From an uncultured Poribacteria bacterium (GTDB lineage: Bacteria; Poribacteria; WGA-4E; PCPOR2b), in assembly GCA_958296125.1 (NCBI GenBank), contig OY282444.1:1289176-1353175 (forward strand): DNA of 64,000 nt. The letters are read 5' to 3'. Shown in pieces: positions 47,307 to 50,620 of the stretch; position 1 is the first letter of the stretch; every line of letters begins with the position of its first letter. The notes beneath the pieces are model-generated. The model was not told where the DNA came from. It did no database searches and saw only the letters and a program-made list of their open reading frames with translations. A program made the translations under genes and the position numbers.

Positions 47307-48458
47307 TCAGCCCTCACGTAGATGTTGAGGGCGTGTCAGCTCCGCTGTCAGTGCTTCAATAGAGTGGCTCAGTACTAGGTCCTCCTTGAGTAGTGTTTCA
47401 ATTCGTTGACAGCTTCGCACGACTGTTGTTCGACTCTGTCCAAACCCTTGATAAATCTCTTTCAACGAGAGGGTGGTTAACTGACGCGCAAGATACATTC
47501 CGACTTGTCGAGGGAGTACAAACCGTCTTTCGCGCTTTCGAGAACATAGGTCTGATACGGTGAGGTGGAAATACCTAGCAACGGTTTCCTGAATAATTTC
47601 CAGCGTGATTGTGTCGGATGGAGGTCGATCCGGGCTTCTACCCTCTAACGCGTGATGAGCAGTCTGTAGGGTCAAGGGTGAGCCCAAACGCGCCTCTGCC
47701 ATTAATCGGTTTAAAGCACCTTCAAGCTGACGAACGTGCTGCGTCAGATGTTTTGCTAAATAACGTAGCATTTTCAAGGGCACGGGTCCAGATTCCCGTT
47801 CTTTTAACTTCTGCTTCAGGATTGAAAGCCGCAAATCAAACTCAGGCGCACAAATTTCAACGATGTGCCCCTGCGTGGGTTCATTGGACGAGTCCCAAAA
47901 CTCCTTCAGAAACTGCGGTAAACGATCGCAGGTGCATACGAGCCGTTGGCTTCGTTCACTCAAGCAGTTAAGTAAGTGGAAAAACTCCTCCTGAATCCTT
48001 TGCTCCGGCGATAAAAAGTGAATGTCGTCAATCAGCAACAGATTGACATCCTTATACTGTTGCCGCAGTGCGGCAGCTTTCCGAGGGTCAGCAATGGATC
48101 GAAGCCATTCACGCATGAATTTCTCTGCTGAGGAACAGTACACCGTGCGATTCAGGTGCCCCTGACGAAATTGGTTTCCAATTGCATGCAACAGATGGGT
48201 TTTCCCTAGCCCAACGTCTCCATGTATAATTAATGCCCGCTCTACCCTTCCAACCCCATTTGTCAAGCTTTGCGCTGCTTCACACGCCTCTTGATTGCTT
48301 TCCCCAACGACAAACCGATCAAAAGTTAATGCTGGATTCAATCCTGAATTGGCAGGTATGCGTGGTGCTGAAGTTGGCATATAAGTCAGCAATTCGGCTG
48401 ACTGTGATACCGGAGGCTGGGAAGGGCGATCATCGCTGCCGCCATTCGAGTGATTCAT
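47307..48458 (-). CDS. DnaA-like protein (AAA+ domain III and DNA-binding domain IV, lacking domain I)
   Basis: TFDRFVVGESN, GDVGLGKTHLL, LLIDDIHF, VRQLEGAL, LPRQVGMYLAR..T..SLKEI. Confidence 0.85.
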   Translation of the reverse strand: MNHSNGGSDDRPSQPPVSQSAELLTYMPTSAPRIPANSGLNPALTFDRFVVGESNQEACEAAQSLTNGVGRVERALIIHGDVGLGKTHLLHAIGNQFRQGHLNRTVYCSSAEKFMREWLRSIADPRKAAALRQQYKDVNLLLIDDIHFLSPEQRIQEEFFHLLNCLSERSQRLVCTCDRLPQFLKEFWDSSNEPTQGHIVEICAPEFDLRLSILKQKLKERESGPVPLKMLRYLAKHLTQHVRQLEGALNRLMAEARLGSPLTLQTAHHALEGRSPDRPPSDTITLEIIQETVARYFHLTVSDLCSRKRERRFVLPRQVGMYLARQLTTLSLKEIYQGFGQSRTTVVRSCQRIETLLKEDLVLSHSIEALTAELTRPQHLREG

Positions 48459-48557: not shown

Positions 48558-48912
48558 TTTCTCTGTCATTAGCAACATCATAATTGAAGCTTTGTGTGGG
48601 GGCTCATCATCCTCTGCCACAATATAGGCTGGGAAGACAATTTGGGTAGCACAATAGTCTATTAAAAAATCAAAACGAGATCAAGCCTTTTTTTCGAGGG
48701 CTCATAGGGGAATTGCCCCTGTAAATGTTAGCAGAGCGCAGATGATGGCACAGATTACCATCACAATCGTATCCATCAGTTTATGACAGGTACGACTGTC
48801 ATTGCGTCGGGGAGCTGTCAAGTCGGAAAAATGTACTTAGATTGAGGCGATTGGTACTTTCGCCATTTAATCTGCTCCTTATGGGTTTGGATAGCTTAAT
48901 ACATTACCTCAA

Positions 48913-48952
48913 GTGACATATTCCCAAGCCTAAATGCTTGGGAGTATGTCAC
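48913..48952. other. 17-bp inverted repeat hairpin at the left edge of the phage-like remnant
   Basis: GTGACATATTCCCAAGC-ctaaat-GCTTGGGAGTATGTCAC, one G.U pair. Confidence 0.8.
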
Positions 48953-49480
48953 CGTTACGGTAAGCAGCATTTTAATCAATGGATCGGGATTAGCCTTGAT
49001 GAAGTGACACGGATGAAAAAGTCTAATTTGAAGTCGGTCAGTTTTTATTATCCGCTTGTCGAGAAACGGTGGACGCGGAACGACTGCGTTCAGTATCTTC
49101 ATAAACACGGCATTCCTATCCCCAATAAGAGTGCCTGTGTCGGGTGTCCGCTTCATTCTAATGTCACGTGGCTAAGCCTGACGGATGCTGAGAAACAGGA
49201 TGCGATCGATTTTGATGAGGCTATTCGAGATAGCCAATTACATATAGATAATACGCCCAAGGCTAAAAAGGCTGTCAAGGGACAACTGAACCTGCTGGAT
49301 ATGGAGGAGGTGGATGCAACAACGAAACAGAGAACTCCTCGACAAGGAGGCACGCAACTATTTATCCATTATTCGGGCAGACCGTTTCGAGACGTACTAT
49401 CAGATATAGGCGATTCACAACAACAACCAGAACTCTTTAATAGAAAAGATGAAGAGTGCGCTGGAGTGTGTTTTATCTAA
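48938..49480 (+). pseudogene. 5'-truncated phage-type PAPS-reductase-like (adenine nucleotide alpha hydrolase) gene
   Basis: QWIGISLDE..RM, YPLVE..WTRNDC, KSACVGCP, C-terminal CAGVCFI; N-terminal PP-loop half and RBS absent. Confidence 0.7.
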
Positions 49481-49538
49481 ACCTAAAAGAGAAACCTTGA
49501 GGAAAGACTCAAGCGTACCGAATTTCTTATTTAATCAA

Positions 49539-49609
49539 TCGAAACGCTCCCGCAGGGGAGCGTCGGGGCAACCTAAGCGTCGGGAGCCCCCTGATGAGAA
49601 CCCCGACGC
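49539..49609 (+). ncRNA. Type II hammerhead ribozyme with pseudoknot; predicted cleavage after C49564
   Basis: UC-GAAA-C 49539-45; stem III GCUCCC/GGGAGC; GUC 49562-64; stem I GGGGC/GCCCC; CUGAUGA 49591-97; 2-bp stem II; 8-bp pseudoknot GCGUCGGG 49577-84 with CCCGACGC 49602-09. Confidence 0.92.
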
Positions 49610-49636
49610 ACAACCTTAACCATAAGGAGATTTATA

Positions 49637-50323
49637 ATGTTACGCTTTGTTTTGGCAATTACAGTTTTTCTCACCCTTCAGCTATCACTGCTTTCATTTT
49701 CAGATGAAGATAACCAAAAGCCAAAGATTCGAGCAGCCATACCGCTTATTGCATATACAGAAGATGGACGAAAGGTTCTATTAAAAAGCGATGGAACTTG
49801 GGAATGGGCAATTGACGCTCCCGCTCCCCCATCATCTAAACCTATCTATCCCAAACAAACAGTGGCTAAAATCATATCTTCAGGTGTTCTTGTAACAACC
49901 CCACATCTACAAGATGTGAGCATAAGCCTCGGGCAGAATATAGTCGAATTAGAACAATTATATGGCGCAGCTGCCCCTAGTCGCTACGACGAAGAAACAG
50001 GATTAACCTTTCCTGGTAATCGTGGTAATGCCCGATTCGGCGGCCTTGAGATCAGTTTGGATAATGACCACAAAGTAGAAACTATTATGATTTACGATTC
50101 AAAGTATAAAACGAATAAAGGAGTTGGAGTTGGCAGTCTCCATCATAAAGTTCGTATCGCTTATGGCATCCCGACAGACATCGGTAGCGGTGGCACGGAC
50201 GCAAGGCTTGAGCACTACAAAGCAGGTGAAGCAGGTGAAATTACGCTAACTTTTGGGTATACAAAGGGTAAGGTTATACTCATTGCGCTATCAGCCATCC
50301 CAATCCCCAACTCAAACCAATAG
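49637..50323 (+). CDS. Secreted hypothetical protein with DUF3157-like motif
   Basis: RBS aaggag; signal peptide; AYTEDGRKVLLKSDGTWEW motif; C-terminal TNKGVGVGS...AYG. Confidence 0.8.
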   Translation: MLRFVLAITVFLTLQLSLLSFSDEDNQKPKIRAAIPLIAYTEDGRKVLLKSDGTWEWAIDAPAPPSSKPIYPKQTVAKIISSGVLVTTPHLQDVSISLGQNIVELEQLYGAAAPSRYDEETGLTFPGNRGNARFGGLEISLDNDHKVETIMIYDSKYKTNKGVGVGSLHHKVRIAYGIPTDIGSGGTDARLEHYKAGEAGEITLTFGYTKGKVILIALSAIPIPNSNQ

Positions 50324-50361
50324 ATAACAACATCGGGGGCGACTTCCCTCGTCCCCGACTG

Positions 50362-50426
50362 TAATGCAGCCCCCGCTGTCATGTAGACAGTCGGTGACGG
50401 TCCCAAGTCCGGAGCGATGCAGAGGG
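50362..50426 (+). ncRNA. Twister ribozyme (P1-type topology); predicted cleavage U50362/A50363
   Basis: UAA; P2 UGCA 50365-68/50418-21; T2 GC/GU; P3 hairpin 50373-94; A then P4 CGG/CCG; L4 UCCCAAGU; GA-GGG giving T1 with CCC; P1 stem not evident. Confidence 0.78.
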
Positions 50427-50469
50427 ATAACAAGGAGGTTAGACACGGAATACAACACACAAGGATATT

Positions 50470-50577
50470 ATGAACGTCATGGATAGAACCATCATTGTGA
50501 ATGCGCCTTGCGGGGATTGCGGCGGCGACTTGTATTCAGGCTATAGCACAGTAAAGAAGCCAGCCCCCATCAATTAA
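50470..50577 (+). pseudogene. 35-aa ORF with a single CxxC, probably a truncated Zn-ribbon gene
   Basis: MNVMDRTIIVNAPCGDCGGDLYSGYSTVKKPAPIN after aaggat. Confidence 0.35.
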
Positions 50578-50592
50578 ACCTGTTAATAAATC

Positions 50593-50620
50593 TTGCATTC
50601 CTTTTATTAATCTGTATAAT
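50593..50620 (+). promoter_or_regulatory. Sigma70-type promoter for the MFS gene
   Basis: TTGCAT-16 nt-TATAAT. Confidence 0.55.

Follow-up and report, generated by a model that had tools for sequence, protein, structure and literature searches.

Can a twister element whose two flanks form no P1 stem still be a self-cleaving ribozyme? The question is raised by a short element at 50358-50430 on the plus strand of a 64,000-nt stretch of contig OY282444.1 (the whole of it is called the window here, and coordinates are window positions unless given as genome:contig), which belongs to the single-contig 5.16-Mb (~5.2-Mb) chromosome of a Candidatus Poribacteria sponge symbiont; a neighbouring MFS gene matched metagenome-assembled genomes of Poribacteria only. 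An earlier note on this DNA had described a twister apparently without P1 and had proposed either a natural P1-less variant or early decay, an interpretation that found partial support, with evidence for both alternatives. The sequence is certainly twister-derived. Judging from the sequence and its relatives, we place a probability of roughly 0.6 on the element being a true self-cleaving ribozyme of the twister class that has diverged within a Poribacteria clade, with a complete core and an upstream hairpin (P0) abutting the cleavage site instead of P1. The RNA would quite probably cleave itself in vitro, and it perhaps retains a role in its source genome, for which we rate the odds at somewhat under even.

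Core elements and covariance-model scores

The core elements are all encoded on the plus strand. The cleavage triplet UAA (50362-50364), which aligned to the UAA of the Rfam family RF03160 (twister-P1), places the predicted scissile bond between U50362 and A50363 and is followed by the 5' strand of P2, UGCA (50365-50368), which makes four Watson-Crick pairs with the UGCA of the 3' strand (50418-50421). The L2 dinucleotide GC (50369-50370) is the 5' half of the pseudoknot T2 and pairs with the GU of its L4 half (50407-50408) through C50370-G50407 and the wobble G50369.U50408. The hairpin P3 (50373-50394) joins 50373-50380 to 50386-50394 over 8 bp, with U50391 bulged and an AUGUA loop, while the pairs C50398-G50411, G50399-C50410, and G50400-C50409 of P4 (50398-50411) enclose the loop L4, GUCCCAAGUC. 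Within L4, CCC (50402-50404) is one half of the second pseudoknot, T1, and forms three Watson-Crick pairs with G50424-G50426, the GGG of the GAGGG motif (50422-50426). The first nucleotide of this motif, G50422, corresponds to the conserved guanine to which the role of general base is assigned. Directly after it, AUAA (50427-50430) occupies the position of the P1 3' strand and has no complement in the 5' flank. The earlier note had listed UAA, P2, P3, P4, T1, T2 with its G.U pair, the UCCCAAG motif, and GAGGG as being in the correct order, and each of them could be read where it had been placed; P0, the hammerhead partner, and the homologues are additions to that list.

The conserved adenine, here A50363, has been assigned as the general acid (PMC5408937, PMC6765202). 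L4 agrees with the conserved G-U-C-C-C-A-A-G-C-C at 9 of 10 positions, the exception being a C-to-U change at 50408; all conserved nucleotides of L1 and L4 are therefore present save this one, and T2 is still paired there as G.U. The optional stems P0 (50330-50362) and P3 are both present as well.

When searched with Infernal, the element matched RF03160 at 50358-50430 (+) with 36.9 bits, corresponding to an E of 1e-6 on 301 nt and of 4.1e-6 over the whole 5.2-Mb genome. This was the covariance-model check that the earlier note had called for, and its outcome was a significant score that fails the curated gathering score of 67.2 bits, such that a default Rfam scan of the window at the gathering score returned no twister match. 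However, of 12 unambiguous natural twister-P1 matches in contigs of phages and bacteria, scored in the same manner, 10 also fell below 67.2 bits (47-66 bits), so the RF03160 cut-off is a strict one. Misfolding was ruled out as a cause of the low score, since forcing the nested twister helices costs 5.3 kcal/mol, a typical value that ranks 55th among 88 natural twisters. Because the defining stem P1 is missing and the score lies below the curated one, the element is filed as a twister-class variant rather than as a plain member.

Judged against the type-P1 twister (RF03160; Roth et al. 2014, as reviewed in PMC5408937 and PMC6765202), the window element shares the N|A step in UAA, the 4-bp P2, the GC of L2 in T2, the optional P3, P4 with its L4 GUCCCAAG.C, the GAGGG of T1, and the order of the elements, and likewise lies between genes, in sense orientation and beside a hammerhead ribozyme. 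It differs in its lack of a P1 between the flanks (0/4 pairs), in the G.U pair of T2, and in a score of 36.9 bits, which is under the gathering score of 67.2. Circularly permuted twisters of types P3 and P5 (Rfam clan CL00120) resemble it in that a closed hairpin, in their case P1 with a loop, directly precedes UAA; however, the 5' strand of their hairpin is joined to GAGGG and their chain is open in P3 or P5, whereas in the window element P3 is closed and the chain break falls after GAGGG.

Relatives in Poribacteria and sister copies

No twister match was found among the 60 nearest genomes. A phylum-wide Rfam search picked up weak matches, scoring 29-42 bits, in four genomes from a different Poribacteria family, and their alignment with the window element (A2) revealed plain homology in P0, P2, P3, L2, and P4, which was seen again in alignment A3. 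From a 10-sequence alignment that included the window sequence we built a covariance model, R1, which detected 17 elements across 7 of the 176 Poribacteria genomes, many of them in clusters of 2-4; the six genomes other than the source genome belong to family f2, genus g8 (G089, G090, G095, G098, G105, and G108). The window element itself scored 53.9 bits with R1 (E = 4e-13), partly by construction, as it is one of the ten seed sequences, whereas its homology with the clade is visible in A2 independently of the model.

The homologs also allowed the covariation check that the earlier note had suggested. The share of standard pairs across the 10-sequence alignment was 90% for P2, 87.5% for P4, 95% for T2, and 96.7% for T1. 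The three outer pairs of P2 are standard in all ten sequences and its inner A-U in six, the window element included, while P4 covaries from C-G to A-U (pair 47-60 in A3). T1 reads GGC:GCC in the relatives and the canonical CCC:GGG in the window, an exchange that is compensatory at two pairs. Thus, T1 and P4 are compensatory or covarying within the clade. The relatives also retain a short P1, GUC/GAC, in which 2-3 pairs form and one covaries, P1 being paired at 52.5% overall. The window element has neither of the two clade traits T1 GGC:GCC and short P1, and it further differs from its relatives in the wobble of T2, where they carry G-C, and in having a hammerhead partner. Like theirs, its location is intergenic; in the relatives, a Shine-Dalgarno (SD) sequence and AUG lie 25-40 nt downstream of the ribozyme.

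The low Rfam scores of these relatives can be attributed to their flipped T1, as the pseudoknots are not modelled as pairs. Outside Poribacteria, a flipped T1 was encountered once, in a Planctomycetaceae metagenome-assembled genome (MAG). The twister family is thereby extended to a candidate phylum of sponge symbionts, and a strict twister-P1 cut-off combined with unmodelled pseudoknots evidently hides whole clades from Rfam, the flipped-T1 one being an example. The clade loci, all below the Rfam cut-off, include L190 (G098:C6:35500-46500), L191 (G095:C125), and L165, L168, L171, and L172 (G108). In the L190 region, clusters of 2-4 twisters precede tandem genes for lipoprotein/TPR-like proteins (beginning MKRQIQT... 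and containing a lipobox-like cysteine), and no hammerheads were found near them. Twisters thus precede lipoprotein-like or TPR-like genes in L190, while the window element follows a gene with a signal-peptide-like start.

Two further copies of the element exist in the source genome. Copy 2 (G000:C1:2807009-2807082, -; L002/L183) has P0, UAA, the P2 5' strand, P3, and L4 in common with the window element (copy 1) and preserves the P3 helix via an inserted U-A pair, but its 3' half, with the P2 3' strand and GAGGG, is lost. Copy 3 (G000:C1:1658346-1658421, -; L186/L192) scored 29 bits with R1 and deviates from the core in four ways: its cleavage site reads CAA, T1 contains a U.G wobble, P4 an A.C mismatch, and L4 a C for its first adenine; it also carries the same T2 G.U as copy 1. 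Copy 2 adjoins a HicA/HicB-like pair and a 43-aa zinc-ribbon open reading frame (ORF).

These comparisons bear on the history of the T2 wobble. The 30 nt at 50398-50427 are identical to a Subdoligranulum twister at 29 positions, with U50408 as the sole difference, and copy 2 keeps C at the equivalent position; U50408 is therefore a derived transition. In two pattern scans, the distinct natural sequences had GC:GC in T2 in 57 cases, AC:GU in 23, and GC:GU in 2. With L2 fixed as GC, every complete twister retrieved had C at the free L4 position, and with L4 fixed as GU, L2 was AC in nearly all. G.U wobbles in the pseudoknots have been reported to leave cleavage nearly unchanged (PMC11662667). 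T1 varies in other natural twisters too, where UCC:GGA occurs. Scanning metagenomes for exact occurrences of the lineage-specific sequence yielded 0 matches, and the pattern CCCGACNGTAATGCAGCC retrieved chance matches alone, with no ribozyme, from viral contigs. Among metagenome contigs (L111-L156), an L4 of AAGU is nearly always accompanied by an L2 of AC, a clean case of T2 covariation; many of these are A+T-rich marine contigs with poly-A/poly-U P1 stems.

The P0 hairpin in place of P1

As the earlier note had claimed, the flanks are unpaired: ACUG (50358-50361) and AUAA (50427-50430) form 0 of 4 pairs. Offsets of up to 3 nt provide at most 2 pairs, and a search for a long-range or shifted P1 found no complement to AUAACAAGGAGG within 49480-50600. 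Such a state is less novel than the note had assumed, since 12 of 90 distinct natural twisters recovered by pattern scans (13%) have ≤2 possible P1 pairs even with offsets allowed.

What occupies the 5' flank instead is an extended P0 hairpin (50330-50362, +), in which 50330-50342 pairs with 50349-50362 over 13 bp, with C50359 bulged and a loop at 50343-50348. Its fold has an energy of -20.4 kcal/mol (z = -4.5), none of 200 shuffles was as stable, and the minimum free energy and centroid structures concur. The 3' strand of P0 includes the would-be P1 5' strand, and the hairpin runs up to the cleavage site. In ordinary P0-bearing twisters, such as those of Mu-like phages of Oscillospiraceae (L040, L072), a G+C-rich hairpin likewise lies immediately upstream, with an SD and start downstream; there, however, 3-5 nt separate the end of P0 from the cleaved nucleotide, and this gap is taken up by a 3-4-bp P1. 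In 85 natural twisters that combine a P1 of ≥3 bp with a stable hairpin upstream, P0 most often ended 4 nt from the cleavage site (35/85). A hairpin that reaches the cleavage site is found in all three copies of the source genome: in copies 2 and 3 only 0-1 nt lie between the hairpin and the cleaved nucleotide, and the stem of copy 3 is a perfect 12 bp. Therefore, the hairpin instead of P1 characterises this lineage and is no peculiarity of a single copy. It also occurs in independent twisters, namely two in L129 and those of L059 and L096. Such hairpins were present in 7 of 19 P1-poor twisters and in 15 of 85 others, an enrichment that is merely suggestive.

Published work suggests that this architecture would still allow cleavage, and by analogy the element may be regarded as a modest variant that holds no surprise. 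Stem P1 has been described as "dispensable for cleavage activity", a construct without it reaching nearly the wild-type rate (PMC5408937), and in a massively parallel assay of 2625 natural candidates twisters proved "essentially impervious" to P1 imperfections (PMC11662667). The activity of P1-deleted 'mini-twister' constructs, which the earlier note had taken as established, is confirmed in the literature (Kosutic et al. 2015, as cited in PMC5408937 and PMC11662667): as described there, the core needs no P1 pairing, and a single nucleotide on the 5' side of the scissile bond is enough. The 'mini-twister', however, is an engineered, truncated env22 construct, whereas the 5' side of the window element is untruncated and carries a long hairpin up to the cleavage site. 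Geometrically, a helix occupies the place of P1, with its second strand supplied from upstream and not by the 3' flank. We infer that P0 would stack where P1 would otherwise sit, equivalent to a P1 with a distal cap and a nick following GAGGG; alternatively, the ribozyme may simply work as a natural 'mini-twister'. With members spanning a 3-bp P1, a 2-bp P1, and no P1 with P0 instead, the clade and this locus form a natural test of the need for P1 in vivo.

Two other features of these flanks were considered. A repeat of GATAACAA at 50323-50330 and 50426-50433 exactly flanks P0 plus twister and was tried as a target-site duplication, but it was judged to be chance, because 45 of 300 shuffles equalled or exceeded its length and the clade shows no such pattern. 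The P0 loop, CUUCCC, is anti-SD-like and can pair weakly, with one mismatch, with the downstream AAGGAGG, a pairing that does not recur in the relatives. One group of soil contigs carries twisters in which the 3' strand of P1 also serves as the SD of the following gene (GAGGG-GAGGAG..AUG).

Genomic setting, predicted processing, and competing readings

The ribozyme lies in a strain-specific insert of ~1.65 kb (48912-50562) that carries the whole cassette. This was established by genome comparison: in the same-genus genome G008 (L031) the equivalents of 48739-48910 and of 50593 onward are only 57 nt apart, and all 18 same-genus genomes with a match align solely from ~50588 onward. Consequently, orthologues by synteny could be ruled out, the relatives lacking the whole insert. 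Its left border is marked by a 40-nt palindrome (48913-48952; GTGACATATTCCCAAGC...GCTTGGGAGTATGTCAC) that recurs at 90-94% identity at a minimum of five (at least 5) other genome sites and resembles a repetitive extragenic palindrome (REP) or a miniature inverted-repeat transposable element (MITE). Within the insert, a phage-type PAPS reductase gene fragment (48938-49480, +) matches phrog_424 over profile positions 257-352 of 460 (E = 5.7e-15), and in tblastn it hits phage PAPS reductases at 27-39% identity; the insert DNA showed no similarity to GenBank phages. This is followed by a type II hammerhead ribozyme (49537-49607, +; RF02276, 29.2 bits against a cut-off of 37, E = 0.002 on 1.7 kb), which has the cores CUGAUGA and CGAAAC and lies 27 nt upstream of the start codon of a 228-codon ORF (P0001; 49637-50323, +) with an N-terminal signal-peptide-like segment. 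P0001 is thus placed between both ribozymes. Downstream of the twister, the sequence reads an SD-like AAGGAGG (50432-50438, +) with no start codon at normal spacing, and a 35-codon ORF without a family match (50470-50577, +) crosses the right border of the insert and is probably the stump of the original downstream gene. The order of gene, P0, twister, SD, and gene is a common layout in phage and bacterial twisters, and in gut phages twisters separate the early genes of Mu-like phages.

In our preferred reading, the RNA has most likely kept its ability to cleave after U50362, which would trim the 3' end of an mRNA. The ribozyme would be transcribed together with the upstream 228-codon gene and would be cut between U50362 and A50363, such that the mRNA of that gene would then have the stable P0 hairpin at its 3' end, closed by a 2',3'-cyclic phosphate, while the downstream RNA would begin with a 5'-OH; the type II hammerhead would trim the other (5') end of the mRNA. 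Twisters and hammerheads are reported to share genomic neighbourhoods, and processing of polycistronic mRNA is a proposed, unproven role (PMC6765202). The locus bears on the biological role of bacterial twisters.

Several observations weigh against this reading. The window element has the lowest Rfam score of the clear twisters compared, and the G.U in its T2 is rare, as only one further sequence among the 85 natural ones shares it. Because the relatives keep a P1 of 2-3 bp, its total loss here is derived. The element was absent from the same-genus genomes searched (18 in one search and 19 in another), and since it is confined to a recent insert missing from its congeners, no purifying selection can be demonstrated. 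Damage is seen in both sister copies, only a stump is left of the downstream gene, and the first SD lacks a start codon. Furthermore, P0, which occurs in about 10% of the candidates analysed, is associated with lower average cleavage (0.40 vs 0.85), for which the authors suggest inactive conformers as the cause (PMC11662667), and the P0 3' strand can pair with P3/P4 nearly as well as the native fold pairs.

The main rival is that the element is a decaying relic in a scrap of foreign or rearranged DNA, with P1 lost, T2 weakened, and no biological role, which may or may not cleave in vitro. It gains weight from an insert cut off at both ends, with the PAPS reductase fragment on the left and the 35-codon stump on the right, and from the SD that lacks a start codon; the derived change at U50408, the 0/4 pairs of P1 where relatives average 2-3, the missing 3' half of copy 2, the four core deviations of copy 3, and the lack of a twister in any other genome of the genus searched all fit it as well. 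However, the catalytic and tertiary-contact nucleotides are all intact in the window element and every deviation is of a tolerated kind, the bracketed ORF and the hammerhead are intact, and a hairpin reaching the cleavage site is common to three copies and to unrelated twisters, which suggests architecture and not random damage. We regard decay as possible but clearly the less probable account.

A second rival holds that the locus is a conformational switch. The P0 3' strand at 50350-50362 could pair, through 12 of its 13 positions, with 50387-50399 (+; repeat I7), which comprises the P3 3' strand and the P4 5' strand, and it could thus act as an anti-ribozyme that destroys P3/P4 unless neutralised by the P0 5' strand. 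If the 5' strand were held open, cleavage would be off, and one candidate for doing so is a ribosome at the TAG stop codon (50321-50323), where it would terminate only 7 nt upstream. When forced, the alternative helix has an energy of -37.0 kcal/mol, as compared with -34.7 kcal/mol for the nested native helices (pseudoknots are included in neither figure), and with the P0 5' strand blocked the values are -32.6 and -16.5 kcal/mol, a difference of ~16 kcal/mol in favour of the alternative. The alternative duplex has a z-score of -3.1, which is the second most extreme among 106 natural twisters, and both a large family of Oscillospiraceae-phage twisters with similar P0-P3 complementarity and the published lowering of cleavage by P0 agree with such a device. 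Were the alternative pairing real, it would offer a mechanistic explanation of that lowering; otherwise, the element would be an ordinary, slightly eroded twister whose behaviour the published tolerance data already predict. Were the switch real, translation of the upstream gene would be coupled to its own 3'-end processing. Nevertheless, copy 3 lacks the complementarity (z = +0.7), which may be a by-product of two similar G+C-rich hairpins; the folds leave out pseudoknot energies; a terminating ribosome would get no further than the first few outer pairs of P0; and the model was conceived post hoc. We consider the switch doubtful, and equally so a composite arrangement in which P0 supplies P1 outright, its 5' strand replacing the P1 3' strand with the chain open after GAGGG, while doubling as a translation-coupled switch. 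The commonest gut-phage twister family (L039-L109; Oscillospiraceae MAGs and IMG/VR contigs) has a P0 3' plus P1 5' strand, CUGUGCCCCGGCCG, that is strongly complementary to its own P3 3' strand (-26.8 kcal/mol), possibly a built-in inactive conformer.

Much less probable is a third rival, in which the hammerhead and twister would excise a 798-nt RNA (49565-50362) with a 5'-OH and a 2',3'-cyclic phosphate that RtcB would ligate into a circular mRNA. Both ribozymes do lie on the same strand around one ORF and the genome does encode RtcB, but hammerhead-twister proximity is common in bacteria without a known circular product, and the clade relatives have twisters without hammerheads. Chance resemblance to a ribozyme, for which the score under the Rfam cut-off might be cited, has practically no probability left in view of the genome-wide E of 4e-6, the 29/30 identity with a bona fide twister, and the clear homologues with covarying T1 and P4, which by themselves already refute it.

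Other observations concern the surroundings of the element and the genome at large. Searches of public sequencing runs found the sequence of the element only in four runs from one sample, all as assembled long contigs in which neither joints nor molecule ends are visible. Just left of the insert, 47307-48458 (-) encodes a DnaA-like/DnaC-like AAA+ ATPase with a 39%-identical paralogue at G000:C1:2673632-2674732. P0001 has two clear paralogues in the source genome (E ≤ 1e-10) and a third, weaker match by tblastn, and no paralogue adjoins a twister, while no homologues of it were found in genome_contigs, viral_contigs, or 40 relatives. One P0001 paralogue (L160; G000:C1:1236947-1240396) lies between two blocks of 37-nt direct repeats that resemble clustered regularly interspaced short palindromic repeats (CRISPR), with weak Rfam CRISPR-DR matches on both sides. 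Finally, the RtcB gene (G000:C1:254262-257099, -; L162, L163) appears interrupted within one 1012-aa open frame, the matches to RtcB Pfam positions 1-50 and 46-426 being ~1.5 kb apart, an arrangement that would fit an intein.

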